Assembly (NCBI GenBank): GCA_015075375.1
Contig: JABTUM010000002.1
Location: forward strand, 16,306-80,305
Length of the DNA stretch: 64,000 nucleotides
Source: Planctomycetota bacterium
GTDB lineage: Bacteria; Planctomycetota; SZUA-567; H5-PLA8
Direction: 5' to 3'
Positions 3,625-29,510 of this stretch are shown here, piece after piece. Under the pieces are notes generated by a model. The model was not told where the DNA came from. It made no database searches and saw only the letters and a program-made list of their open reading frames with translations. Made by a program: the position numbers and the translations under genes. The stretch's first letter is position 1, and the number at the start of each line of letters is the position of its first letter.

Positions 3625-4683
3625 TTAAGCCGACGGCGCCCGCTCGCGCCTCAACTGCCCGCACGCCGCCGCGACGCTCTTGCCTTTGCTGAACCGGATC
3701 GTTGTCGGTATCTGGGCCGCGTCGAGCACGGCCTTGAAGGCGTCCTGCGCTTCCCGGCTGGGCCGCTCATAGGGCGTCTCGGCCACCGGATTGAACGGGA
3801 TCAGGTTCGCTTTGCAGGGCAGATCCTGGAGCAGCCCCGCCAACTCGCGCGCCTGCGCCACACTGTCGTTGATGCCCGCCAGCAGCACGTACTCGAAGGT
3901 GACCATGCGCCGCGCCTTGCGGCAGAATTCGCGCACCGCCGGCATCACTTCGCGGATCGGGTAGCGCCGCGAGGCCGGGATCAGCCGCGCGCGCGTCTCT
4001 TCGTCCGGCGCATGCAGCGAGACGGCCAGTTCGAGCTGCAACTGCTCGCCGGCCAGCTTCAGGATGCCCGGCACGATGCCCACCGTCGAGATGGTGATCC
4101 GCCGCGCGCCGATGCCGCAGCCTTTGGGCGGCGGCGCGTTGAGCGTGCGGATCGCCTGCATGACTTCGTCGTAGTTGTGCAGCGGTTCGCCCATGCCCAT
4201 GAAGACGACGTGCGAACTGTGCTCGCCCGAGTGCCCCCACATCTGCAGGTACTGTTCGACGATCTCGTGCGCCGCCAGGTTCCGTTCGAAGCCGCCCAGA
4301 CCCGTCGCGCAAAAGACGCAGCCCATCGCGCAACCCACCTGGCTGGACAGGCAGCTCGTCAACCGCCCCGGCACGCGGATCTGCACCGACTCGATCAGCG
4401 CTCCGTCGCGGGCTTTCCAGAGCCACTTCGCGGCGTCGTCGCCTTCCTGCCGGCCGGCCGCGTCCAGTTCGTACAAGGGCATCCGTTCCGCGAGTTGCTT
4501 GCGCAGCGTCTTGGAGAGGTTGGTTACGCCGTCGTAGCCCGCCACGCCCTTGCGGTAGAGGAACTCCCGCAACTGCGTGACGCGAAAAGCCGGTTCGCGC
4601 AGCTTCGCGAAGATTTCGACCATCTCCGCTTCGGAGCAAGCCGTGGCGGCCTTGGGAACGGGCGGGGCGGGGGAAGCCGTCAT
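3625..4683 (-). CDS. rlmN: 23S rRNA/tRNA (adenine-C2)-methyltransferase, radical SAM RlmN/Cfr family
   Basis: Radical SAM cluster motif CAMGCVFC followed by ATG, plus GMGEPL and a C-terminal ...AACGQL. The N-terminal FRVTQLREFLYRKG matches the RlmN head domain. The longest ORF starts at TTG 4761, overlapping the upstream stop; ATG 4683, preceded by AGGTG, was chosen. Confidence 0.85.
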   Translation of the reverse strand: MTASPAPPVPKAATACSEAEMVEIFAKLREPAFRVTQLREFLYRKGVAGYDGVTNLSKTLRKQLAERMPLYELDAAGRQEGDDAAKWLWKARDGALIESVQIRVPGRLTSCLSSQVGCAMGCVFCATGLGGFERNLAAHEIVEQYLQMWGHSGEHSSHVVFMGMGEPLHNYDEVMQAIRTLNAPPPKGCGIGARRITISTVGIVPGILKLAGEQLQLELAVSLHAPDEETRARLIPASRRYPIREVMPAVREFCRKARRMVTFEYVLLAGINDSVAQARELAGLLQDLPCKANLIPFNPVAETPYERPSREAQDAFKAVLDAAQIPTTIRFSKGKSVAAACGQLRRERAPSA

Positions 4684-4757
4684 GTCTGCAAGCACCTGAT
4701 TCGTGCGCGCGCGGGGTGCGAGCGCAGGCGCATCGTACCACGAAGGGCGCCCCGCGC

Positions 4758-6626
4758 TCAAAGGCCGGAGTCGATTTGCTTCAGGACTGCCCGGGCGAAC
4801 GGGCCCAGTTCGGGATGCGCCGCCAGGCGTTCGGCCTCAGCCCGGGCGCGGTCCGCGCGCTTCAAATCCACCCACGCCTGGAGCCGGTTCCGCAGCAGTT
4901 CGGGCAAGTCCGGTGCGAGCGCCAAGCCCGACTCGGTGAAGGCCAGCCCCTCTTCCGTAGCCCCTCGGCGAAACGCATCGGCGGCCAGGAGCCGCAGGGC
5001 CGTCAGTTTCGCGCCGCGTTCGGTGGGGCGTTCGGCGCGAGCATTCCAGACCGCAGTCGCCGCCGCTTGCGCGGCGGGCCAATCGTCCAGGCCGGCGCAG
5101 AGATGCGCGTACTCGGCCTGGAGCGCCAGCGGATAGATCATCCGGTCGAAGTCCGCGCAACGCAGCGCGCGCTCGAAGCGTTCGCGCGCTTCCAGGCGCA
5201 TCGCGCTCGCGCGGTCCGGATCCTTTTCGTCCGCCGCGCCGTGGAACAAGAGATGCGCGAGGTACGCGTGCCCGTAGGCCGAACCCGGCGCCTTATCGGC
5301 GCCGTCACGCACCAGCGTTTGCGTATCCCGCCAGAGGGTTGAGCGTTGTACGGCCAGTCCCGCGCAAAGCGCCAGTACAACCGCTACGAACGCCGCGCTT
5401 AAGCGAGGCCGGGCGGCGGCAAGCAGGCTCAGCCCTTCCGCCAGCCAGAGCGCGAAAGCCGGCAGCGCCAGATACGTGTAGCGGTCTTGCAATACTAACG
5501 AGAGCTGCGCGAACGGTCCGATCATCGGCGCGATGCCTGCGGCCATCCAGAGCGCGTACAGCGCCACGCGCGACTTCGGAATTCCCAACCGGATGCTCAG
5601 CCACGCGGCGATTGCGAGGGATACGCCGCCGGCGGCGAGATACCGTCCCGCGCCGAGATCCAGTCCGGCCACGGGCACTTCGTAGTAGACGCTCAAGCCG
5701 ACCGGCCCCACCAGCAAGCCCAAGTGCCGCATGAAAAGATAGGCGCTCATGAGCCACGGGCCGAATACGCCTTCGCCCAGCGGCGGGAGCAGTAAATCCG
5801 CGTGCGATTTGCGGATCACGAAGAAGGTCCACAAAAGCGCCGGGAGCAGCGCCGCCGCGCGTGCAAGTTGTTTGCGCCGGCCGGCTTCGGCGTACAAGAG
5901 CAGATCCCACGCCACCAGCACGGCCCACCACGCCACCGCGACGCCTTTGGTTCCCTGCGCGAGCAAGAGGATCGCCGAAGCCGCGGCCACGCGCGCCCAG
6001 CCCGGGCCGCGTTGCGCGTCGCCGCCGCTGTAGACGACCAGCGCCGCGAGGCCCAACAGAATCGCCTGCTGCGTCGTGCGCGCGCCGATCCAGCAGACGC
6101 TCTCGCAGACGGTTGGATGCCAGAGAAAGAGCAGCGCCGCGAAGAGCCCTGGGCCCGCGCGCCCGGTCAGCCGCCGCCCAAGGACGGCGACGCAGCACCC
6201 GGCCAAGCCGTGCTGCATGGCTTGGCTGAGGCGGAAGGCCCACGGGGCGAAGTGTTCCGCGCCCGGCGGCCCGTGCGAGGCCTGCCCGAAGAGCGCGTGT
6301 TCCAGCGCCAGCGACGCCAGCGAAACGGGCGCCCAGTGCGCGGTCTGGAAACCTTCGCCCGTCGCGGGACGGAACGGAAAGGCGAGCAGCTCGCCGAAGG
6401 CACTCCAGCCGTGGACCAGGAGCGGATTCCGCACCGTCCAGTAGACGTCGTCGTACGCCAGCAAGAGCGGCGCGTTCAGGCAGCCGAAGACCGGGAGCAG
6501 CCCGGCGAGCAGAAAAAAGCACGCGGCGCGACCGGGATGCGCGGAAAGCCATGCGGCGGCGGCTTCAAGGGCGCCGTGCGGCTGGAGGGAATTCGTAGTC
6601 GGATCGAGGGCGCGACCGGGGTTCAT
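4758..6626 (-). CDS. GT-C fold membrane glycosyltransferase, TMTC/PMT-like, with C-terminal TPR region
   Basis: About 10 or more hydrophobic segments. A first-loop acidic motif, LLLAYDDVYWTVRNPLL, resembles the FxxDD..N motif of TMTC-like GT-C enzymes. A later QDRYTYLALPAF motif is also present, and the C-terminal ~170 aa is helical and TPR-like. ATG at 6626. Confidence 0.6.
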   Translation of the reverse strand: MNPGRALDPTTNSLQPHGALEAAAAWLSAHPGRAACFFLLAGLLPVFGCLNAPLLLAYDDVYWTVRNPLLVHGWSAFGELLAFPFRPATGEGFQTAHWAPVSLASLALEHALFGQASHGPPGAEHFAPWAFRLSQAMQHGLAGCCVAVLGRRLTGRAGPGLFAALLFLWHPTVCESVCWIGARTTQQAILLGLAALVVYSGGDAQRGPGWARVAAASAILLLAQGTKGVAVAWWAVLVAWDLLLYAEAGRRKQLARAAALLPALLWTFFVIRKSHADLLLPPLGEGVFGPWLMSAYLFMRHLGLLVGPVGLSVYYEVPVAGLDLGAGRYLAAGGVSLAIAAWLSIRLGIPKSRVALYALWMAAGIAPMIGPFAQLSLVLQDRYTYLALPAFALWLAEGLSLLAAARPRLSAAFVAVVLALCAGLAVQRSTLWRDTQTLVRDGADKAPGSAYGHAYLAHLLFHGAADEKDPDRASAMRLEARERFERALRCADFDRMIYPLALQAEYAHLCAGLDDWPAAQAAATAVWNARAERPTERGAKLTALRLLAADAFRRGATEEGLAFTESGLALAPDLPELLRNRLQAWVDLKRADRARAEAERLAAHPELGPFARAVLKQIDSGL

Positions 6627-6759
6627 GGCGCTCCATCATCCACGAAGTTGGTCATCGGGGAAGGCCGGAAGGGGTTGCGTTGAGATGCCAATCCGGCGAA
6701 GACGCGGGCGAATATCACAGCGGTTGAGCGGGGGCGGCGGAGGCCATAACAAAAACGCA

Positions 6760-6779
6760 AATGTTCCACGTGGAACATT
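6760..6779. promoter_or_regulatory. Perfect 20-bp palindrome, candidate operator upstream of the GT-C/rlmN operon
   Basis: aatgttccac|gtggaacatt, verified base by base, lies ~135 bp upstream of the ATG at 6626 in a non-coding gap. Confidence 0.4.
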
Positions 6780-7343
6780 CACGATGCGAAGCGAGGTGCT
6801 CTTGTGCGGCAAAACGGCGGACGAGGAATAAGGACTTATACGCGCGAAAACGCGGTCTATACCACCTCGCGCACGTCGAGCAAAAATTCGATCCTGCCAT
6901 AAAACTGCTATGAATCGCTGCTGCAAAGCGTATACTTGCACGCAGGTGCTTAGCGCTTTGCGCGCTATGCGCGCGGGGCTGAACGGGTGCAAGCGGTTCG
7001 GAGGCCAGAAAAGCGCGGCCTTCCGTGGCCTTCGGCGCTCGGCGGCGGCGGGAGGTTACGCGTGTGGGTAAGTGGGCGCGGTTGTTTTGAGTTTTCTAGT
7101 TTCGGCGCGCGGGGCGAGTGCCTAGCATGCGTGCGATGGGGCGTGGTAGACGTTGAAGGTATGGCTTCAGGAGACCGATGCCAAGCGCGGGCGTTGCGCC
7201 GTTGGGCACGGGTTGCGAACGGATGCAGCGCCGTGGCGCCCGGTCCAAAGGGGGGCACAGGCTCGAGTTTGGTTTTCCCCTTAGCCAGCGCCAGCAGCCA
7301 ACGAATTCTCCTACCTAGAGAAGGAAGTATTCCTTCTTTCTGA

Positions 7344-19462: not shown

Positions 19463-22400
19463 CTATTTTTCGAGGGTGCCGATGCCGTTGAGCTGGAAGG
19501 CGGCCCAGTGGGCGGGTGTGCGGTCGTCTTTGACGAAGGCGCGCTGCGCGGCGCAGAGCGCGCCGACGGGATCGCGCGGTCGGTCTTTTAATTTCTCGTA
19601 GAAAATCTTCATCAAATCGGTGGTGGCGTCGTTTTCGACCTCCCAGAGCGTGCCGATCACGTTGGGCACGCCGGCGTGCTGGAAGGCTCGCGTGACGCCT
19701 ACGACTTCGTCGCCGCTGCCTTCCCCTCCGATGCTGCTGACGCAGGCGCTGAGGACGACGAGTCCGGTGTGCGGCAGCTTGTACTCGTAGATTTCCTCCG
19801 CGGGCACGCGGCCGTCGTGGTCGATGCGGGCAAAAAGATGGATGCCCGACTGGGAAGGCACGAGCGGGTCGAAGGAGCCGTGCGAGGAGACGTGGAGGAT
19901 GCCGGCTTCGGGCGCGGCTTCGCGGAACTTGGCGGCGGTGGCGTCGCGTTCGAGGAAGAAGCGGGCCTTGGGAAAGGACCGCGCGATTTGCCCGGTTTCG
20001 CTGCGGTAAAAAGGCGAGTTGGGATCGAGCGAGATGAGCGCGTCGAAGGCGATGAGGGAGTCGGCGGGTTCGAAGGTGAGGCGTTTGCGCGCGGCGTAGA
20101 CGCTGGCGCTGGGCGCGTAAAACGGCTCGTAGTGCTGGACCAGGAAGCCGCTGCCGTCGTTGAGCGCCTGGAAGGGGAGGTAGTGCAGAGCCTGGTGGGG
20201 GACGATGCAGACGCGCTTGGCGTTTCCGAGTCCGCCTTCGAGGGGGCCCCAGAGGCGGCGGTGGAGTTCCTGGGCGATCGATTTCCAGTCGCCTTGGCGC
20301 TTGGCTTCTTCGCGGAGGTGTTCGGGCAACTGTTCGAGTTGCCGGCTGTCGGCGAGGATCGCGAGGCGCAGCGCGACGATTTTTTCGCGCAGTTCGGCCT
20401 GCTTGAAGGGCAGGCTGCGGCGCTGGAACTTATCCTTGGTGACGGTCCAGGCGAGGATGTCGTGCTCGCGCAGGAAGTAGACGGCGAAAGCCAGATCGTC
20501 GCCGCAGAGCGCCTGGAGTTCCTTGACGGAGGCGAAGGGCGTGGCGGCGGCTTGCGCGTTCTGGCCCAGGCTGTCGAGGAGGCTGCGGGCGCGGGCGCGT
20601 TCGGCCCATAGGAACGCGGCTTCCTCGTCGCCTTGCGCGACGGCGAGGGAGACGGCGAGTTCGTAGGCTTCGTACTTGTTGTCGCCGGTGGAGAGGCGGC
20701 TGTGGTAATCGCGCAGGCTGGCGCGCTGGCTTTCGATCAGGTCGAGTGCTTCGTAGAGCCCCTTGCGCGCGGCTTCGGGCTTCATCTGCTTGTACGCGGA
20801 CTTGGCGACGCCGACGCGCCACTTCCAGGCAAACTCCTGGCTCTTGGTCTGAGCGGCGGCCTCGCCGGCCTTGCGGTAGGCGGCTTCGGCTTTGCCGGGC
20901 TGGCCGAGTTCGAGCTGGCAGCGTCCGACTTCGAGCCAGGCCAAAGGCGTGTCGGGATGCGCCGCTCCGGCGAGGGCTTTTTCGAGAATCGGGATGGCGT
21001 CGGCCTGGCGTCCTTTGCGGCTGAGGCAGAGCCCCAGGTGATACCAGGCGGTTCCGATCTCGGCCGCGCCGACCTGGAGGCGGTCGAGGCGTTCGGCTTC
21101 TTCCCGCAAGCCTTCCTCGATGCGCGCGTCTTCGACGCCCAACTGTCCGGCCACGACGATGAGGTCCCGCGCGGAGCGGTATTCGAGGAGCGTAAGCTGG
21201 TTGGCGGCGGCGTGGTCGAAGGCCTGGCGGTGGCGGCGGAGGGCTTCGGGAAGATTGCCGAGGGAGGCGTAAAGCTGGCCGAGGCGGTGGTGGGCGGAGG
21301 CCAGGAGGTGCGGATTCTTGCGCGCTTCGGCGAGTTTGACGGTTTCGAGGCCGGTGCCGCCAAGGGCTTCGAGGTTGCCGGCGAATCGCGCGGCGTCGGC
21401 GAGGTTCCAGAGCGCGTGGAGGAGGAGCTTAGGGTCCTTGTCTTTGCGCGCGCGATCGGCGGCGAAGCGGGCCAGGGTCATCGAGAGCTGGGGATCGGCG
21501 TGGGCGGCGTCTTCGCGGGCGCAGAGGCTGCGCAGGATCAGGGCGGCGGCGGGCGCGGAAGCGGCGTTCGCGGGATCGGCGGCTTCGAGCAGGGCGGCAG
21601 GCGGGCTGCCTTGCTTCCAGGCCTCGACAAGCGCCTGGGCCTGCGCCGCGGTGAAGTAGGGCCAGAGCTTATCGAGGGCGGGCACCTCGGCGCCGGAGCG
21701 GAGCGTTTCGAGGAGCGCGGCGTGAAGGACGCCGCCGGTCTTGCTCCAGGCGTCGTACGAGAGATCGGCCGGCGCGTAGGCGCAGAGTTCGAGGAAGGCC
21801 GCGACGGTGGGTTCGAGCGCGCGGTCGAGTTCGAGCTTCTGGAGCATCCGTTCGGCCTGGCAGCCCAGGTGGGCGACGGTGTGGTCCAGGGAATCGGGGT
21901 AGAGTTCGGCGATTTTGGCGAGGTGCGGTTCGGATTCGTTCCAGCGCCCGAGTCTGGCGAGCCCGACGGCGTAGATGACGCGCAGGTCGGAGACGAGATC
22001 GGCTCCGTAATGCCGGGCGCGGTCGACGTAAGGGAGCGCGATCTCGGGGAAGCCGAGGCCGGCCCAGGCGCGCGCGGTATCGAGGAGGCGGTCGCGGCGT
22101 TCTTCGTTGTTCAGGCCGGGATCGTCGAGCTTGGCGTTAAGCGGGGCGATGGCGTCCATGACGCGATCGGGCAGGCGTTCGTTCTGGCTTTTTCGGACGG
22201 GGAAGATCGTGAGCGGTCCCAGGCCGTCGCCTTCGAAGCTGGCGGGCAGCATATAAGGATGCGCACCGCCGGCGTGGGCGGGGGCGGCTCCGGAAGCGGG
22301 TTCTGGCGTGCGCAGCTTCAGCGCCAGCCAACCGACGGCCAACAGCACGACGAAGGCGGCTGCGACGACGAGCAGCGTCTGTGGACTGCGTTTGGCGTTT

Positions 22401-22891
22401 ACCAGCGGTACGGGCCGGCCCGCGGCGGCGGGCGGAGGCGCGGGCGGCGCGGAACGGAAGCCGCCTTGGGGCACCGCGACTTTGCGCGCGGCTTCGGGCG
22501 GCGCATCGGCCGGCGCGCTGGGTTCCGCCGGAGCGGGCACGGGCGCCGATGGCCGGGGCGCTTGCGCGGCGGGCGGTGGCACCGGGGGCAGCGGAGCCGA
22601 AGGGCGCGGGACGGGGGCCTGCGTCCCGCCGCCGGCGCGTTTGGCGGAGGGCGGCGGCGGCACGGGAATTCGTTCGGAAGGGCGCTTGGCGCTGCCGGGA
22701 AGCTGGCCGGGGACGACGGGATCGCCGAGGGTGGGCTCGATCTCTTTGAACGGACGCCAATCGGGCATGCCCTTTTTCCAGCAGGGCGTTTCGGACGGCA
22801 GTTGGCCCATGACCCAGAGCCGGCGCAGTTCCGCGCCATCGACCGGGCCCTGCTGCTGGCCTTGGACGACGAAATGCCATTCTCGCGGCAT
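19463..22891 (-). CDS. GYF_2 domain / proline-rich linker / TM / TPR / CHAT-domain (caspase-like) protein
   Basis: ATG at 22891 chosen, since the longer ORF to 23128 would overlap the upstream gene. The N-terminal WHFVVQGQQQGPVDGAELRRLWVMGQLPSETPCWKKGMPDWRPF is GYF_2-like. A Pro-rich ~100 aa follows, then the TM segment TLLVVAAAFVVLLAVGWLALKL and long TPR-like helices. The C-terminal CHAT domain has the ILHVSSHG (His) and GLVVLSACVS (Cys) dyad. Confidence 0.85.
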   Translation of the reverse strand: MPREWHFVVQGQQQGPVDGAELRRLWVMGQLPSETPCWKKGMPDWRPFKEIEPTLGDPVVPGQLPGSAKRPSERIPVPPPPSAKRAGGGTQAPVPRPSAPLPPVPPPAAQAPRPSAPVPAPAEPSAPADAPPEAARKVAVPQGGFRSAPPAPPPAAAGRPVPLVNAKRSPQTLLVVAAAFVVLLAVGWLALKLRTPEPASGAAPAHAGGAHPYMLPASFEGDGLGPLTIFPVRKSQNERLPDRVMDAIAPLNAKLDDPGLNNEERRDRLLDTARAWAGLGFPEIALPYVDRARHYGADLVSDLRVIYAVGLARLGRWNESEPHLAKIAELYPDSLDHTVAHLGCQAERMLQKLELDRALEPTVAAFLELCAYAPADLSYDAWSKTGGVLHAALLETLRSGAEVPALDKLWPYFTAAQAQALVEAWKQGSPPAALLEAADPANAASAPAAALILRSLCAREDAAHADPQLSMTLARFAADRARKDKDPKLLLHALWNLADAARFAGNLEALGGTGLETVKLAEARKNPHLLASAHHRLGQLYASLGNLPEALRRHRQAFDHAAANQLTLLEYRSARDLIVVAGQLGVEDARIEEGLREEAERLDRLQVGAAEIGTAWYHLGLCLSRKGRQADAIPILEKALAGAAHPDTPLAWLEVGRCQLELGQPGKAEAAYRKAGEAAAQTKSQEFAWKWRVGVAKSAYKQMKPEAARKGLYEALDLIESQRASLRDYHSRLSTGDNKYEAYELAVSLAVAQGDEEAAFLWAERARARSLLDSLGQNAQAAATPFASVKELQALCGDDLAFAVYFLREHDILAWTVTKDKFQRRSLPFKQAELREKIVALRLAILADSRQLEQLPEHLREEAKRQGDWKSIAQELHRRLWGPLEGGLGNAKRVCIVPHQALHYLPFQALNDGSGFLVQHYEPFYAPSASVYAARKRLTFEPADSLIAFDALISLDPNSPFYRSETGQIARSFPKARFFLERDATAAKFREAAPEAGILHVSSHGSFDPLVPSQSGIHLFARIDHDGRVPAEEIYEYKLPHTGLVVLSACVSSIGGEGSGDEVVGVTRAFQHAGVPNVIGTLWEVENDATTDLMKIFYEKLKDRPRDPVGALCAAQRAFVKDDRTPAHWAAFQLNGIGTLEK

Positions 22892-23027
22892 ACGTTGGTA
22901 ATCTTCCAGCCTGTTATTTGATGATGGTACCTTACGGCGCTCGGAAAACGAGAGCTTGCACAGGTGAAGCGCGAATTTTTTTATCCGCGGGAGGAGGCTC
23001 CGTGAAGGCTTGAAAGGGGCTCGCGCT

Positions 23028-24644
23028 TCAGGCGCTTTCTTTTTGTGTGCTGGCCGCGGTTTCGGCCTGCTCGCTTCCGCCGTCAGCGGCCTCGGGGGTG
23101 GCGGTCTCGACGAGGTGGCGTTCTCCAAGCATCTTCAAATAAAGGAGGAGCTTGGTGAACATGACGACGGGATGGACGCCGAGTTCTGCGCAGAGTTCGG
23201 CCAGGACCTGAGCGACGGTGGGGCCGTGGGCGAGTTTTTCCCAGACCTTGCGGCCGATGGGGTCGAGGGCGAGGCGGCGGTGGAAGACTTCGGCCGGGCG
23301 TCCGCCGCGCAGGAGCGTGACGAACATGCCGGAGCCGCCTTGCACGGGGTAGACGAGGGAAGCGGTCTCGTCCTTGAGGCTGGGCTCGAAGCGGACTTCG
23401 TCACGGGTGCGGACGCGGAAGCGGAGCTGCTTGCGGCGCAGGTCGACGGCGCTGAGCTTTTCTTTCTTGGCGGGGATGGGTTCGCCTTGGGCGTCGTCGT
23501 CGCTTTTGAGTCCGGCCTCGGCGTACACGAAGGGCCGCCAATCGACGGGGTGCTGGTCTGGCAAGGCGTGGCAGGACATGCGTTCGGTGAGGGCGCGCAA
23601 CTCGGCTTCGGCATCGGCGTCGCCTTTTCGGACGCAGAGCGCGAAGAGTGCGCGCGCATCGGCGCAGGTCCAGGCGAGGCCGGCGGCTCCGCCGGACCAG
23701 CGCCTGCCGAGCTTACGGAGAATCCAGTCGCCGCCGCGAATGTGGGCGCGGCGGCGTTCGAGGTACAGGCCGGCTTTGTGCGAGTGCACGGAGTCGTCGG
23801 CGGTGCGGCCGTGCTTGCCGGCGGCCTTCTCGATGCCGGGCCCGAAGATGCGCGGCGGCCCGGTCATCTCGCGGGAGACGGGGTCGGTGACTTCGCCGCG
23901 GTCGAAGAGTACTTTCATCAGGCGGGTCTGGAGTTCGGTTTCGTCGATCTGGGCGCGGTGCTGTTCGGCCATGCCGAGCCGGGCGAGGGTGACTTTGCAC
24001 GCGGGGGAGGCGAATTCGGCGTGGACCTGGGCTTCGCCGAGTCGCAAGCCGAGGAGATCGTAGCCCGCGGGGAGATCGACCTGGAGCCCGGCGAGGGCGA
24101 AGCGGACGGAGTCTTTGGCGGAGTAGAGCTTGAACGAGCGCAGGACGCGCTTGGCGGTGCGGATCGGATCGTCGTCGCCGGTGGGGCAGAGCGCGGCGGC
24201 GACGTAAGCGCGGCGGCCTTCGGCGGCGACGCTGAGGACGGCCATGCAGCCGCGCTGGCCGTTCCAGAGGTATTCGCAGGCGGTGCCGTCGGCCTTCGTG
24301 CCGAGATAATCGTCGAGCGTCCGGGGTTCGCCTTTCCACTCGATGGTGACGCCGGTCTGCTTGGCCTGCTTTTCGGCGGCGGTGCGTTCGCGCTTCCAGG
24401 CGGAGGCGAGGCGCTTCTCGACGCTTGCGGGCGATTCGTTGGCGTCGCTCGGGAGCCACATCCAGTTGAGTTCGAGCGGGGTGCCGGTGAGCGTTTCCCA
24501 GCGCAGGTGCGCGGAGCGTTCGGTCCAGTTGGCGAGGTTGGGCTGCCAGGCGAGGGGGGTCTCGAGGCTGAGCGGCGGTACGGCGCAGCGGGTCCAGACG
24601 GTGCGGGCGTCGGCGGGCCGCGGCGTGGTAGGGGCTTCGGGCAT
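23028..24644 (-). CDS. Hypothetical protein with C-terminal PqqD-like (RRE-type) domain
   Basis: 538 aa, ATG at 24644. The C-terminal LDPIGRKVWEKLAHGPTVAQVLAELCAELGVHPVVMFTKLLLYLKMLGERHLV matches the PqqD/RRE pattern (from memory). The N-terminal ~430 aa is unrecognised. Confidence 0.7.
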   Translation of the reverse strand: MPEAPTTPRPADARTVWTRCAVPPLSLETPLAWQPNLANWTERSAHLRWETLTGTPLELNWMWLPSDANESPASVEKRLASAWKRERTAAEKQAKQTGVTIEWKGEPRTLDDYLGTKADGTACEYLWNGQRGCMAVLSVAAEGRRAYVAAALCPTGDDDPIRTAKRVLRSFKLYSAKDSVRFALAGLQVDLPAGYDLLGLRLGEAQVHAEFASPACKVTLARLGMAEQHRAQIDETELQTRLMKVLFDRGEVTDPVSREMTGPPRIFGPGIEKAAGKHGRTADDSVHSHKAGLYLERRRAHIRGGDWILRKLGRRWSGGAAGLAWTCADARALFALCVRKGDADAEAELRALTERMSCHALPDQHPVDWRPFVYAEAGLKSDDDAQGEPIPAKKEKLSAVDLRRKQLRFRVRTRDEVRFEPSLKDETASLVYPVQGGSGMFVTLLRGGRPAEVFHRRLALDPIGRKVWEKLAHGPTVAQVLAELCAELGVHPVVMFTKLLLYLKMLGERHLVETATPEAADGGSEQAETAASTQKESA

Positions 24645-24807
24645 GACGTTCTTTACAGCGGGAAACGGGAAAATTCAAATACAGGGGTGAGCCGTTCCAA
24701 GTTCCACATTCAAACGGCCAGAACTACGCAAGCTTCAGACCGCAAACTTCAAAGGGCAAACAGGGCAAGGGCGGCGGGCGGGACGCCCGCGATACGCAGG
24801 GCAGGAT

Positions 24808-27165
24808 TCAGGGATCGATGGAGGGTTCGGGGGTTACGGAATCGGGTTCTGGGACGGCGGCTTCGGCGATGCGGTCGACGATGCGTTCGAGGCGTTGGAG
24901 TTCCTGCTTGGCGCGGCGGATGGCGAAGGTGTAGCCGAAGTCCTCCTTGAGCGCGGCGAATTCGGGGTTGAGTTCCATGGCGTGCCAGTTGAGCCATCCG
25001 TAATCGACGGCGACGTGGAGCGCGTGGACGCTTTCGTCGCGCGCGCCGATGGCGGCGTAAAATCCCGCGGCTTCGAACCAGACGCGCTCGTCCCGTCGCG
25101 CGTCCTCGAGGGCCTGGCCGACCAGGGCTCGGGCTTCGTCGTGGCGTCCGGCGGCCCAGACGGAGCGGGCGAGTCGCGTGCGCTGCCAAGCTCGGCCCGG
25201 TTTGTCGGCGGGCGCTTTGAGTTCGAGGGCGCGGCGGAGTTCGCGCGCGGCGGCCTCGTAATGCCCGGCGGCGTGGAGCGCCCAGCCGTAGGTATCGACG
25301 ATGTAATCTTCGCGCGGTTCCATGCTGACGGCGCGGGTGGCGAGGGCGAGGGCTTCGCCGGTGCGGCGGTACTCGGGCAGGAAGCTGGTGGCGTAAAACC
25401 AGGCGTGATTATTGAAATAGCCGACGTCTTCTTCGCTGCCACGGCTGATGCGTTCGAAGGCGGCTTGCGCGTCGGCGTAGCGGCCGACTTCGTGGCAGGC
25501 GTTGGCGACCTGATGAAGCAGCCCGATTTCCGGTTCCGGCTTGCGGAGTTCGGCTTCGAGGATGCGCAAGGCGCGGTCGGTGAGTCCGAGGCGTTCGAAG
25601 GTACCGGCGGCGACGCTGGCGGCGTAGCCGCCACGGCCTTCGCCGCGATAGATGAGCAAGGCGCGGCGGACGATGCGTTCGAAAGACTGGCGGTCGTGTT
25701 CGAGCTTGTAGAGCGCATGGAGGGCTTGATCGTCGCCGTCGGCGGCTTTGGAGCGGAAGACGGGGAGCGCTTCGCGGACGCGCCAGTCGGCGAGGAGGCG
25801 CAGCGCGGTTTGAGCGGCGGCGCCGCGGCCTTCGGCGATGCGGATCAAGGTTTCGATGCCTGCCGGATCGCCGAGGTTGGCGAGGGCCTGGGCTTTCTCG
25901 ATCTCGCCTTCGCGAACCTCGCTGAGGTTGAGCGCGCGAATCTGCGGAAGCGCTTCCTTGTATTCGAAGTGGCCGAGGGCGGAGGTCGCGGCCTGGAGCA
26001 CGTCGGGATCGGCGTCCTTCAGGCATGCGGCGATTTCGGGAGCGGCCTCGCGGGCGTTGAGGGCCACCAGGGCGTGAAGGGCGGAGATGCGGACGGCGGC
26101 GGAATCGTGCTTAAGGGCGCTTTTGAGGGTGGGGAGCGCGGCGGGGTCGGCGATGGCGCCGAGGGTATCGACGATGAAGTCCTGGAGGTCCTGATTCTCG
26201 GGCTTGGCGTACATCTCGACGAGGAGGGGCACGCTGGCGGCGTCGCGCAGGCCGGCCAATCCGTTGAGCGCGCCGAGCTTGAGTTCGCGGTCGTCGGCTT
26301 CGAGCGCGTGCTTGAAGACGGGAGCGGCCTCGGGGTCGAGCATGTCGCGCAGTGCGGTGAGCGCGGCGCCGCGGATGGCGGCGGGGACTTCGCCGTCGCC
26401 GATGGCGAGTTTGCGCAGCGCGGGCATGCTTTCGGGATCGCGCAGGCGCAGGGAGAGCACGCGGATGGCCTGGAGGCGGAGGAGTTCGCGGGGCGATTCG
26501 AGGGCTTCGCGGACGAGCTTGAGGGAAGCGGGGCCTTGATCCTGGGCGAGGGCCCAGAGGGTCATGGCGCGGAGCGGTTCGGCCAGATCGCCGCGGCCGT
26601 AGAGTTCGCGCAGGGGCGCGCCGGCCTCGGGAGGCAGAGGCAGCCAGCCGAGTTCGCGGACGATGGCTTCGAGCGCGCCGGGATCCTGTTCGGTCTTCAT
26701 CAGTTCGAGGAGGGCGGGTACGGCGGCGGCGTGGCCGCGCTGGGCGAGTTCGGAGACGGCGGCGGCGCGTTCCTCGGGCTGCTGGAGCGGGTAGGTGCGG
26801 ACGATCTCGCGGAGGCGTTCTTCGAGGCCCGGAGATTCGGCGAGCGCGACGGCTTGGCGCAGCGTGGTGAGGCGCCACTTGAGATCGGGGTCGCCGGTGA
26901 CGTCGAGCTTGGCGAGGTACGGCAGGACGGCGGTGCCGGCCTGGCGGAGGCTTTCGAGGGCCTGCTGGCGTTCGCCGAAGACTTCGCTTTTGAGCTGGGC
27001 GACGAGGCGTTCGAGTTCGGCGGGCTTGAAGGCGGGCGCGGCTTCACCGGCGCTGAGGCCAACCAAGCAGAGTGCGCAGGGCCACAGCGCCAAGAAAGAT
27101 AGAGCGCAGAGGCGGCGTGCGGCGTTCGGGCCGGCTCGGCCGGACGCGCGCCGCCGGGCGATCAC
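24808..27165 (-). CDS. Exported HEAT-repeat plus TPR protein
   Basis: GTG at 27165 overlaps the upstream TGA (GTGA). The signal-like RRLCALSFLALWPCALCLVGLSAGEAAP is followed by repeated ..A..AL..L.DP.A.P.L.. HEAT-like units and then TPR-like helices. The first 154 codons of the track ORF (to 27627) are Arg-rich and overlap the cNMP gene. Confidence 0.75.
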   Translation of the reverse strand: MIARRRASGRAGPNAARRLCALSFLALWPCALCLVGLSAGEAAPAFKPAELERLVAQLKSEVFGERQQALESLRQAGTAVLPYLAKLDVTGDPDLKWRLTTLRQAVALAESPGLEERLREIVRTYPLQQPEERAAAVSELAQRGHAAAVPALLELMKTEQDPGALEAIVRELGWLPLPPEAGAPLRELYGRGDLAEPLRAMTLWALAQDQGPASLKLVREALESPRELLRLQAIRVLSLRLRDPESMPALRKLAIGDGEVPAAIRGAALTALRDMLDPEAAPVFKHALEADDRELKLGALNGLAGLRDAASVPLLVEMYAKPENQDLQDFIVDTLGAIADPAALPTLKSALKHDSAAVRISALHALVALNAREAAPEIAACLKDADPDVLQAATSALGHFEYKEALPQIRALNLSEVREGEIEKAQALANLGDPAGIETLIRIAEGRGAAAQTALRLLADWRVREALPVFRSKAADGDDQALHALYKLEHDRQSFERIVRRALLIYRGEGRGGYAASVAAGTFERLGLTDRALRILEAELRKPEPEIGLLHQVANACHEVGRYADAQAAFERISRGSEEDVGYFNNHAWFYATSFLPEYRRTGEALALATRAVSMEPREDYIVDTYGWALHAAGHYEAAARELRRALELKAPADKPGRAWQRTRLARSVWAAGRHDEARALVGQALEDARRDERVWFEAAGFYAAIGARDESVHALHVAVDYGWLNWHAMELNPEFAALKEDFGYTFAIRRAKQELQRLERIVDRIAEAAVPEPDSVTPEPSIDP

Positions 27166-27737
27166 GGCTGTTCCTTGCGGCCGACGGCTTTCAAGATGCC
27201 GCTGAGGCGGCGGGTGACGGCGGCGAGCTTCTCCTGCGATACTTCCTCGGGCGGGGCGATGTGCGAAAGTTCGATGAGCCGGTCGAGGGCCCAGCGCAGG
27301 CGGTGCGTGGCGATGCGGCCGACGTTGTAGGCCAAGCGGTAGGCGGTGAGATGGCCTTGGGCGATCTTTTCGTCGAAGACGGCCAGGTCGAGGCGTCCGA
27401 CGATGACGTCGGTGCGCGCGACGACGCTGCTGCTGCGTGTTTCGCGCGTCAACAGGCTCATTTCGCCGAAGACGCTGGGGCCGTCGAGTTCGGTGATGAC
27501 GGCCGGTCCGTTGGGGGTATCGCGCATGACGGCAACGCGGCCCTTGGCAAGGACATACAGCCCGCTGGGCGGTTCGCCTTCGCGGAAGAAGATATGCCCG
27601 TTCGGATGGTTGGAGCGGACGAGCCACTCGCTGAGATCTTCGATCTGCAGCTTGCTCATCTGCTCGAAGATGGGGATATCGGGAAGTCCGCCGGAAACCA
27701 TGGCCGTGCCTCGCATCCCAAGTACCTGCCGGCTCAC
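27162..27737 (-). CDS. Cyclic nucleotide-binding domain protein (no DNA-binding domain evident)
   Basis: IPIFEQMSKLQIEDL...GHIFFREGEPPSGLYVLAKGRV...VFGEMSLL is a canonical cNMP-binding fold, with a ~60-aa helical tail. Start ambiguous: GTG 27737, ATG 27716 or ATG 27701. Confidence 0.8.
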   Translation of the reverse strand: MSRQVLGMRGTAMVSGGLPDIPIFEQMSKLQIEDLSEWLVRSNHPNGHIFFREGEPPSGLYVLAKGRVAVMRDTPNGPAVITELDGPSVFGEMSLLTRETRSSSVVARTDVIVGRLDLAVFDEKIAQGHLTAYRLAYNVGRIATHRLRWALDRLIELSHIAPPEEVSQEKLAAVTRRLSGILKAVGRKEQP

Positions 27738-27791
27738 GTTATACCGGGGCGCGCTTGGAGTGAACAGCGCATCGGGGCTCTAACGGGCGCT

Positions 27792-28214
27792 TCAGGTTCC
27801 GGGGGGCAAGGCGCGGTCGGAGTGGCCGGCGGGCAGGCCATCGCGTTCGTTGAGCCATTCGCGCGCGGATTCCAGCGTGCGGAAGACGCCGATCTTGACG
27901 TGGAGGCGTTCGCCGTAGCTGGAGAGCATGCGCAGGAGGCCGAAGGTGGCGGGGGCCTGCGCCAGCAGCGCCCAGCGCGTGCGTTCGACGCGCTCGGGAA
28001 AGGCTTGGAGCAGGTACAGGAGATTCCAGAGTTCGGTGGAGCCGACTTCGAGTTCGGCGGTACGGAAGTCGCCGATGATCTGGATGCCGGGCTTGAAGTC
28101 GGGCTCTTCCAGGAGTTTCCGGATCGCGGCGGAGAGTTCTTTATAATTGATGGGACCTTCGGCGGTCAGGTGCGCGAACGAAGCGGCGGCATGAAGGGTA
28201 TAGCGAATGGGCAT
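27792..28214 (-). CDS. Hypothetical protein, STAS/SpoIIAA-like pattern
   Basis: 140 aa, ATG at 28214. The pattern ..AEGPINYKELSAAIRKLLEEPDFKPGIQIIGDFRTAELEVGSTELWNL..RWALLAQAPATFGLLRM...VFRTLESAREWL resembles small STAS-fold regulatory domains. Weak, from memory. Confidence 0.55.
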   Translation of the reverse strand: MPIRYTLHAAASFAHLTAEGPINYKELSAAIRKLLEEPDFKPGIQIIGDFRTAELEVGSTELWNLLYLLQAFPERVERTRWALLAQAPATFGLLRMLSSYGERLHVKIGVFRTLESAREWLNERDGLPAGHSDRALPPGT

Positions 28215-28412: not shown

Positions 28413-29510
28413 TCAGGGCCGCAGGACGCTTTTGAACGCCCGAATGCGCGCGTCGTCGGGCTTGCCGCCGGCGCCGAGCGTGGGGGCGATCCAGCCGCCT
28501 TCGTCGTATTCGTTCCAGGAATATACGATCAGGGTGCGCGCGGGCATGGCTTGCGGATTTTGCGCGGCCCATGCGAGCGCGCGCTTCAGGTGCGCGGCGA
28601 TCTCCTCGGGCTGTGCGGTTTCGACGTAGGTGCGGGTGCGGTGGTAGTCGTGATCTTTTTCCCAGGATACGGGGTGGTCCATGCGCGGGCGCTTGTCCCA
28701 GCCGGTGCTGACGAGCGGGATGCAGGGGGCCTGGAGGTCGCGCGCGCGGTTCCAGTAATCGCGTTCCAGATTTTCGCTGAAGCGCGCGAAGATTTTGGTT
28801 CCGGTGTTCGCGTAGGCATACGCGGAAATGGCATCGGCTCCCATCTGGCGGGCCTTTTCCCAGTCGGCGGCGGGGTTGAAGCCCATGTAGGCGATGTAAG
28901 GATCGCCGAGATTCGCTTGGCGCGCGGCGGCGCGGAGTTCGGCGAAACGGGTGCGGACGGGTTCGGCATCGACGGGGCCGCCCTTGAAGAGATACAGCAG
29001 CGGGCGGCCGTCCAGTACGCGCAGGTATCCGGGTTCGCGAAAGAGCTTCAGGTAGCGCTGGAGCACGGCCGGCCACGCCTCGGGCGCGCATGAGACTTGG
29101 CTATGCAGGATCATGCAGAAGCGGACGCGTTCGCGCTGGGGGTGGGCGAGGTAGCGCCGCAACGCGCGCGACATCTCGCCGTCTTCGGGATATTCCAGGA
29201 AGGCCCAGTAATCGATGCCCGCTTCCGCGGCCCATTCGATCTCGCGGCCCATCACGGCGTCGGTATCGCCGCGAATTTCGACGCCGGGCTCGGCTTCCAC
29301 GGTTCGGGCGAACCACGGCAGGCGAAAACGGTGCGGCGGGTGGCCGAGGGTGCGTTCGACTTGCGCGGTGACGGGGCCGCCGGACCAGGCGTCCCAACGT
29401 ATGGCTCCGACGGTGGGGCGCGGCATGGGTGCAGGTGCCTCCTTGGTTTCTCCGGCGCGGAGGGCGCCGGCGACGGCCAGCAGAAAGAGGATCGTTCCGC
29501 GTACGGTCAT
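28413..29510 (-). CDS. Secreted hypothetical protein, glycoside-hydrolase-like
   Basis: ATG at 29510 inside track ORF 28413..29996. Signal peptide MTVRGTILFLLAVAGALRAG. The IVYSWNEYDEGGWIAPT motif is reminiscent of the SWNEW.EG motif of some glycosidases. Family not established. Confidence 0.6.
   Translation of the reverse strand: MTVRGTILFLLAVAGALRAGETKEAPAPMPRPTVGAIRWDAWSGGPVTAQVERTLGHPPHRFRLPWFARTVEAEPGVEIRGDTDAVMGREIEWAAEAGIDYWAFLEYPEDGEMSRALRRYLAHPQRERVRFCMILHSQVSCAPEAWPAVLQRYLKLFREPGYLRVLDGRPLLYLFKGGPVDAEPVRTRFAELRAAARQANLGDPYIAYMGFNPAADWEKARQMGADAISAYAYANTGTKIFARFSENLERDYWNRARDLQAPCIPLVSTGWDKRPRMDHPVSWEKDHDYHRTRTYVETAQPEEIAAHLKRALAWAAQNPQAMPARTLIVYSWNEYDEGGWIAPTLGAGGKPDDARIRAFKSVLRP

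Follow-up and report, generated by a model that had tools for sequence, protein, structure and literature searches.

We analysed a 64,000-nucleotide stretch of contig JABTUM010000002.1 (assembly GCA_015075375.1, positions 16,306 to 80,305; "the window"), which comes from a Planctomycetota metagenome-assembled genome and has GC-rich DNA (60–69%). It contains a run of five genes, here called A to E, all on the minus strand. An initial annotation had presented them as a single candidate module of uncharacterised signalling and proteolysis, made up of a STAS-like protein (A), a cyclic nucleotide monophosphate (cNMP)-binding protein (B), an exported HEAT/TPR protein (C), a PqqD-like protein (D) and a GYF-TPR-CHAT protease (E). 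Sequence comparison with other genomes indicates that the conserved unit is B-C-D rather than A to E, and that A and E are lineage-specific neighbours. On balance we favour, at a little better than even chances, the view that the run is a composite of three units (a B-C-D operon, gene E and gene A), in which B-C-D is a functional sensing and binding unit.

In the direction of transcription the genes are A (27792–28214, 140 amino acids), B (27162–27737 with the start first annotated), C (24808–27165, 785 amino acids), D (23028–24644, 538 amino acids) and E (19463–22891, 1142 amino acids). With these starts the intergenic gaps are 54 nt (A-B), −4 nt (B-C), 163 nt (C-D) and 136 nt (D-E); direct reading of the open reading frames (ORFs) gave the same values, and showed the GTGA sequence in which the GTG start of C overlaps the TGA stop of B by 4 nt. 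The conserved N-terminus of the B orthologues places the start of B at 27701, so that the gene spans 27162–27701 and encodes 179 amino acids, and the A-B gap is then 90 nt. Literature searches for this combination of genes found no description of it, in agreement with the initial annotation, which knew of no such system.

Conservation of the B-C-D block

To compare gene neighbourhoods we fetched the DNA around D-family members and relatives of C (loci numbered L001 onwards) and mapped the window proteins onto it by tblastn. Genes B, C and D occur in the same order and on the same strand in the lineage of the window and L001 and in five others (L005, L006, L007, L008, which is identical to L027, and L030). 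The proteins have diverged considerably among these lineages–amino acid identities are 37–66% for B, 34–58% for C and 37–58% for D–and the start-stop overlap between B and C is kept in five loci with called genes, including L005 to L008. The spacing between C and D is 0, 9 and approximately 35 nt in three of the lineages. We found neither A nor E in any of the five other lineages. The nearest public genome locus, L001 (BTVV01000038, "Planctomycetota bacterium AMX-MBFR-7"), retains the whole five-gene arrangement at approximately 94% protein identity, but with a relative this close the shared gene order is not informative. The conservation of gene neighbourhood that the initial annotation had proposed as a check is therefore seen for B-C-D, which are co-linear in five other divergent lineages, and not for A and E, which are found only in the genus of the window.

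The genes flanking the B-C-D block differ from locus to locus on both sides. Downstream of D, in the loci whose sequence extends that far, there are convergent unknown genes in L005, a gene for HPPK in L006, and an unknown gene and a SprT-like gene in L030. Upstream, every B-C lineage other than that of the window has cca, the gene for the CCA-adding enzyme (PolyA_pol and HD domains), directly 5' of B on the same strand, with gaps of approximately 5–74 nt (L005:5174–6532, L006:1–627, L007:1619–3004, L008:2256–3596, L030:3814–5238 and L031:2920–4626). Since cca is absent from the window and L001 loci, B-C-D was relocated as a block. The adjacency of cca to B may be functional or may be due to hitch-hiking in an operon; for the HD domains of CCA enzymes, cyclic phosphodiesterase activity is known.

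Products of genes B, C and D

The domain labels that B, C and E had been given from the letters alone were all recovered by Pfam, and C also has a signal-peptide-like segment. Protein B matches the cNMP-binding domain (PF00027, E 5e-19) with 68.4 bits against a gathering threshold of 27.5, and its nearest relatives in PDB are the cyclic nucleotide-binding (CNB) domains of PKG, PKA and CRP, which cover only residues ~5–160. Its matches to CRP stop at the C-helix (model positions 16–142 of 214), and there is no helix-turn-helix (HTH) domain in its 179 residues, so it is not a member of the CRP/FNR family; it consists of a CNB domain and a C-terminal helical tail. The phosphate-binding cassette (FGEM...TRSSS) is present in the window protein, and its FGE is invariant in the orthologues. 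Because the FGE...RS cassette is intact, the ligand of the window protein is probably a cyclic nucleotide. As B has neither a DNA-binding nor an enzymatic output, it must act by binding a partner.

Protein C has HEAT repeats in its N-terminal half (HEAT_2, E 3e-34) and TPR repeats in its C-terminal half (TPR_19 and TPR_END_plus). The window protein and its four aligned orthologues (5/5) all have at the N-terminus an n-region with positive charge, followed by a short, hydrophobic h-region (in the window protein the hydrophobicity, KD19, peaks at 2.25 at residue 19), from which we infer that C is exported through a Sec signal peptide and is periplasmic. It is not homologous to the 683-residue Armatimonadota neighbour protein.

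The spacer between C and D contains a hairpin just past the C stop codon (GCGGGCG-TCC-CGCCCGC on the minus strand, 24774–24790), which had been suggested to split the run into two transcription units. The hairpin itself is there on direct reading; a terminator or splitting role is not borne out, because no U-tract follows it, no terminator call at this place exceeds those in shuffled sequence, and it is not kept in L001 even at 94% identity. What is conserved in L001 is a 45-nt stretch directly 5' of the D ATG (24645–24689, minus strand), which is identical there while the remainder of the spacer has diverged by indels and substitutions. This stretch is not conserved in more distant lineages, and may be a promoter, regulatory or leader element specific to D. 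Promoter and terminator scans gave nothing above shuffles, and Rfam at E up to 1 gave only a sub-threshold lysine-riboswitch match inside D on the opposite strand, which we take as chance.

Protein D belongs to a small family, with 8 clusters among 5.8e9 proteins and 13 representatives at E<1e-30 among 1.84e9 proteins. An AlphaFold2 (AF2) model (predicted local distance difference test score, pLDDT, 71.6; predicted template modelling score, pTM, 0.70) lays it out as two beta-sandwich/helix domains (residues ~10–225 and 180–360), a linker, and a C-terminal domain at ~400–515. The C-terminal domain (23100–23447, minus strand) is a PqqD-like winged helix of the kind known as a RiPP recognition element (RRE), RiPPs being ribosomally synthesised and post-translationally modified peptides. 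The Pfam PqqD match is slightly below its cut-off (22.1 bits against 23.4), and the assignment, already made in the initial annotation, is supported by a match of the D family profile to the lasso peptide RRE TbiB1 in PDB (5v1u, E 1e-5) and by superposition of the model on TbiB1 in Foldseek (TM 0.81–0.83). On winged-helix fold (a three-stranded sheet and three helices) and sequence similarity together, D is a member of the PqqD/RRE class.

The N-terminal part of D (residues ~10–360; 23565–24617, minus strand) is a tandem PsbP/Mog1/DcrB-like module, assigned from the AF2 model, Foldseek and hhalign. Its best structural match is PsbP (E 1e-4), followed by Mog1, Tsi3, DcrB and Eag/SciW; these are non-catalytic binding domains, and sequence identity to them is only 10–15%. 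By an exhaustive profile search, residues 12–250 also match a family of proteins of approximately 300 residues that has no Pfam or NCBIfam annotation, and an hhalign comparison of residues 14–366 with this family (A4) gave a probability of 99.8% and E 4e-28. The ~300-residue family is marked by CxxC, by W-x-C, which is nearly invariant, and by C-H at its end. In the D family His289, Trp325-x-Cys327 and Cys358-His359 are invariant, and Cys154, part of a C-P motif, is shared by the seven members with sequence in that region. The pattern of conserved Cys and His residues suggests a metal or redox site.

We found the gene for the ~300-residue protein directly followed by a gene for a stand-alone PqqD protein in five loci that represent four independent gene contexts: L021 (8001–9448), L022 (8001–9342), L023 (10001–11427) and L024 (8443–9953), which share one context between them, and L025 (3130–4483). 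These loci come from Armatimonadota-type genomes and unassigned metagenome contigs. Because the two genes are separate there, D is a Rosetta-stone fusion of the pair. Accompanying it in L021, L023 and L024 are a 1,770-residue Peptidase_M28-MacB_PCD-FtsX protein (in L024 split over smaller genes), a DUF1559/prepilin-like protein of 149–162 residues, and FtsX and ABC_tran genes, and this cluster has the look of a separate conserved system, so far uncharacterised. L022 has a giant M28-type protein and a set of RsbW, STAS and SpoIIE genes near the pair.

Partner-switching genes thus lie within a few kb of the pair in L022 (HATPase_c_2, STAS and SpoIIE, 4047–7244), and SpoIIE lies equally within a few kb of a D gene that stands by itself in L003 (6136–7203). 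Their presence could be a coincidence; there is no partner kinase (HATPase_c_2) or PP2C/SpoIIE phosphatase among the neighbours of the window locus.

Genes E and A and their surroundings

Protein E has a GYF_2 domain (residues 5–51, E 1e-16), TPR repeats (~610–690) and a CHAT domain (872–1136, E 8e-55) that scores 186.7 bits against a gathering threshold of 24 (PF12770). The His/Cys dyad reported in the initial annotation is indeed intact: His1004 (in HxxxH) and Cys1050 (in LSAC) lie in motifs that are invariant against two other CHAT homologs. The GYF domain resembles that of the Myxococcus gliding protein AgmX/GltJ (7z3c, E 1e-5), and is joined to a single hydrophobic transmembrane helix (residues 172–194, nt 22310–22378, KD19 2.86) by a linker of 117 residues (55–171, nt 22379–22729) that is 31% proline, with PPPP- and PxxP-type runs. 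Past the helix there are ~950 residues, which include the TPR and CHAT domains. GYF domains bind proline-rich peptides, and it is conceivable that the GYF domain of E binds its own linker, either within one molecule or in trans. From this domain order E is most likely a stand-alone, single-pass membrane envelope sensor or protease with a cytoplasmic GYF domain and periplasmic TPR-CHAT, which most likely signals to the cytoplasm via the GYF domain. A peptide-pattern scan of limited sensitivity found no E orthologue beyond L001 and L011 in 185,579 species genomes.

Gene A has only two protein clusters among 5.8e9 proteins, its own and one at 82% identity. The STAS-like label could not be confirmed. 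Protein A has no Pfam, NCBIfam or PADLOC match even at E 10, and no significant phmmer match in PDB. Its AF2 model, built from only two sequences, has a pLDDT of 64 and the order beta-beta-alpha-beta-alpha-beta-alpha-beta-alpha; Foldseek found nothing significant with this model, the best STAS match being MlaB at E 0.34. An hhalign comparison with a Pfam-positive STAS protein gave a probability of 0.1%, and BLASTP against the 141-residue product of the gene beside SpoIIE in L003 was negative or insignificant. Gene A is a cytoplasmic, genus-specific orphan gene (ORFan) with a predicted alternating beta/alpha fold, and lies outside the conserved core.

Upstream of A on the same strand are genes for a WbsX-like exported protein and a single-domain response regulator, and a convergent gene for a LamG-domain protein lies 3' of E. 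In the Pfam list the neighbours of the run are sulfatase, major facilitator superfamily (MFS), glycosyl hydrolase-like and LamG genes. The WbsX-like gene (28413–29510), which stands between the response regulator gene and A, is missing from the otherwise 94% identical L001 (L001:5885–6358), so the stretch just 5' of A varies even inside the genus. We also observed a strongly positive plus-strand GC skew (+0.10 to +0.21) across ~44 kb of the window (8000–52000), independent of gene strand; it is probably a replication-strand effect, though unusually large.

A proposed sensing and binding unit, its alternatives and known systems

There is no recognisable catalytic domain in B, C or D, which points to a sensing and binding module rather than a proteolytic one. 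We propose that B would sense a small ligand in the cytoplasm. Protein C would be a periplasmic HEAT and TPR solenoid that acts as a protein-binding scaffold, and translational coupling would keep it in a fixed ratio to B. PqqD-type RREs capture a short peptide as an added beta-strand, and the PsbP/Mog1-like fold occurs in adaptors and chaperones, among them the Eag chaperones of type VI secretion systems, DcrB and Mog1. Protein D could accordingly be a cytoplasmic adaptor or chaperone that binds a peptide or a tail, in which the RRE would capture a peptide segment and the PsbP/Eag-like module would hold the client. Ligand-bound B would then gate the engagement of D with its client, and the most economical candidate for this client would be the pre-export form of C, or a partner of C.

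Several observations weigh against this proposal. The phosphate-contacting Arg of B is kept in only 4/7 orthologues and is His in 3/7 (L006:822–1361, L008:3660–4199 and L031:4631–5170, all of which retain FGE and the Ser), so the ligand of the family may not be a canonical cyclic nucleotide. The middle of D, a disordered basic insertion (residues 248–318) that interrupts the two beta-sandwich domains, has a pLDDT below 50. It is not obvious how B and D, both predicted to be cytoplasmic, could form a stable complex with C, which is predicted to be exported. It is conceivable, though nothing in the data favours it, that E and A have been recruited to B-C-D in this genus, where C and the TPR-CHAT part of E are both predicted to be periplasmic. 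The triad is frequent and not obligate: L003 and L026 have a D without adjacent B and C, and no D was detected in L031, which has cca-B-C. Finally, all the B-C-D loci are from one phylum, and part of their synteny could be inherited rather than selected.

These last points are the ones that would be expected if B, C and D were unrelated neighbours with no function in common, whose co-linearity is residual synteny among related Planctomycetota, and cca, a housekeeping gene, is as syntenic with B as C and D are. We nevertheless think this quite unlikely, because order, strand and the B/C overlap persist at only 34–66% identity and amid reshuffled flanks, and because in the lineage of the window B-C-D has been separated from cca and is still intact.

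The initial annotation had proposed instead that all five genes form one cyclic nucleotide-responsive pathway, in which the repeat scaffolds control the CHAT protease and A acts by STAS-like partner switching; on such a model the five-gene run would be a genus-specific elaboration of B-C-D. The shared strand, the short gaps, the retention of the arrangement in L001, the predicted periplasmic location of both C and the TPR-CHAT part of E, and the intact CHAT dyad are all consistent with this. It is improbable, however, in view of the absence of A and E from five other B-C-D lineages, which have unrelated genes after D, the lack of detectable STAS character in A, the lack of any kinase, phosphatase or cyclase among the neighbours in the window, the closeness of L001, which makes its synteny uninformative, and the gap of 136 nt between D and E. 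The description as an uncharacterised signalling module remains fair for B-C-D; the protease pathway and the partner-switching STAS protein find no comparative support, and the conservation pattern, as read from these loci, does not support a cNMP-controlled protease cascade.

Participation of B-C-D, or of D by itself, in a RiPP-like maturation pathway also seems doubtful to us. In such a pathway the N-terminal Cys/His module of D would depend on the RRE and act on an unrecognised precursor as a new peptide-modifying enzyme or peptidase, by analogy with the split B proteins (RRE and protease) of lasso peptide pathways. A PqqD-type RRE is fused to the ~300-residue module or, in other phyla, always adjacent to it, the Cys and His residues are invariant, and the Armatimonadota versions adjoin FtsX/ABC transporter genes and a giant M28-peptidase fusion, all of which would fit such a role. 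The fold predicted for the module, however, is the PsbP/Mog1-like one of non-catalytic binding domains and not a protease fold, and the B-C-D loci lack precursor genes as well as radical S-adenosylmethionine (radical-SAM), cyclase, YcaO, transglutaminase-like and other protease families of Pfam. Reading the gaps manually, we found no conserved precursor-sized ORF: the C-D gaps are too short in three lineages (0–35 nt), and an 18-codon ORF before D in the window is not kept in frame in L001, where the DNA itself is conserved. (An all-versus-all search for small ORFs was discarded, because it was swamped by alternate-frame ORFs of the GC-rich DNA.)

An anti-phage defence role for the run, with the CHAT protein as effector protease, is very improbable: type III-E CRISPR and other defence contexts do use CHAT proteases as effectors, and there are weak PADLOC matches of E to BovA (E 9e-4) and of B to Pycsar cNMP domains (E 1e-3 to 3e-5), but no PADLOC-DB 2.0 system model is significant (matches are at domain level only, the best being E 1e-13 to a generic HEAT model), the locus has no CRISPR array, tandem repeats, cas gene or cyclase, the genes around it are of the sulfatase, MFS, glycosyl hydrolase-like and LamG types, and E is a membrane protein with a CHAT domain predicted to be periplasmic.

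If, as we favour, B-C-D is a functional sensing and binding unit, its interest lies in the RRE. RRE/PqqD domains count as RiPP pathway markers, and genome mining uses them in this way; here one is stably fused to, or paired with, a PsbP/Mog1-like module that does not look enzymatic, with no precursor or modifying enzyme nearby. If the link among the three genes is functional, RREs would serve signalling or protein handling outside RiPP chemistry, and bacterial CNB proteins that have no output domain would gain a partner. A more speculative extension, to which we give only a small chance, is that D is a ligand-gated adaptor that controls the export or assembly of the periplasmic HEAT/TPR scaffold, which in this genus might feed the membrane TPR-CHAT protease; the pair of module and PqqD genes in the MacB-type transporter clusters of Armatimonadota would then make this a broader new family of RRE-guided protein or peptide handling. 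The practical value for now is a corrected and testable definition of the unit, three genes instead of five, drawn from synteny and predicted folds.

Taken one by one, the components (CNB sensor, RRE, repeat scaffolds, transmembrane TPR-CHAT protein) are of known kinds, while the pairing of an RRE with a tandem PsbP-like module, and its link to a CNB-only protein, appear undescribed. B has the canonical CNB beta-barrel, FGE...RS(A/S) phosphate-binding cassette and C-helix of CRP/FNR and PKA/PKG proteins, and differs from them in having no HTH or kinase-docking output domain and in the lack of conservation of the cassette Arg among its orthologues. D resembles the lasso split-B arrangement (the RRE protein B1, such as TbiB1, and the leader peptidase B2) in its C-terminal domain and in the fusion or adjacency of the RRE to a ~300-residue Cys/His partner. 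Unlike that arrangement, the partner is a tandem PsbP/Mog1-like module rather than a transglutaminase-like protease, and the loci have no lasso cyclase, radical-SAM gene or precursor and are linked instead to a cNMP protein and an exported HEAT/TPR protein. The PsbP/Mog1/DcrB/Eag (DUF1795-like) adaptor and chaperone fold, whose members are non-catalytic binders of proteins or helices, provides the best structural matches for the N-terminal module of D, but D has two such domains in tandem, the disordered basic insertion and the conserved Cys/His cluster. A shares with STAS proteins and other anti-sigma factor antagonists its size and its alternating beta/alpha order, but not any detectable sequence or structural similarity, and its locus lacks an RsbW-type kinase and a SpoIIE/PP2C phosphatase.

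Two transmembrane or effector proteins with TPR-CHAT architecture are the natural comparisons for E. Searches of PDB by phmmer with the C-terminus and the full length of E matched no CHAT structures, so its similarity to both of them rests on architecture only. The initial annotation had pointed to the TPR-CHAT partner of type III-E CRISPR, Csx29 of Craspase, which like E has TPR repeats followed by a caspase-like CHAT domain with His and Cys. E is not a Csx29: it scores 36 bits against a cut-off of 300 (NCBIfam NF041237) with only the CHAT part aligned, its locus has no Cas7-11/gRAMP, Csx30/31, other cas genes, repeat arrays or CRISPR array, and E is membrane-anchored whereas Csx29 is cytoplasmic. 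A closer parallel is DdvA, a transmembrane TPR-CHAT anti-sigma factor of Myxococcus xanthus, for which self-cleavage of the periplasmic TPR-CHAT part has been proposed to initiate regulated intramembrane proteolysis (PMC11506125). The predicted topology of E follows the same plan, with a small N-terminal domain in the cytoplasm, one transmembrane helix, a long linker and, in the periplasm, a TPR-CHAT part carrying a His-Cys dyad. Where DdvA has its zinc-binding anti-sigma domain, however, E has GYF_2 and the proline-rich linker; there is no sigma-70 or extracytoplasmic function (ECF) sigma factor gene among the neighbours of E and no defence island downstream, and the PDB search gave no match of E to DdvA at the level of sequence. 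What remains of the original five-gene module is thus a rare, conserved three-gene module and a DdvA-like membrane CHAT protein, and the latter, with its order of GYF, transmembrane helix, TPR and CHAT, would extend the DdvA-like transmembrane TPR-CHAT class beyond anti-sigma factors.

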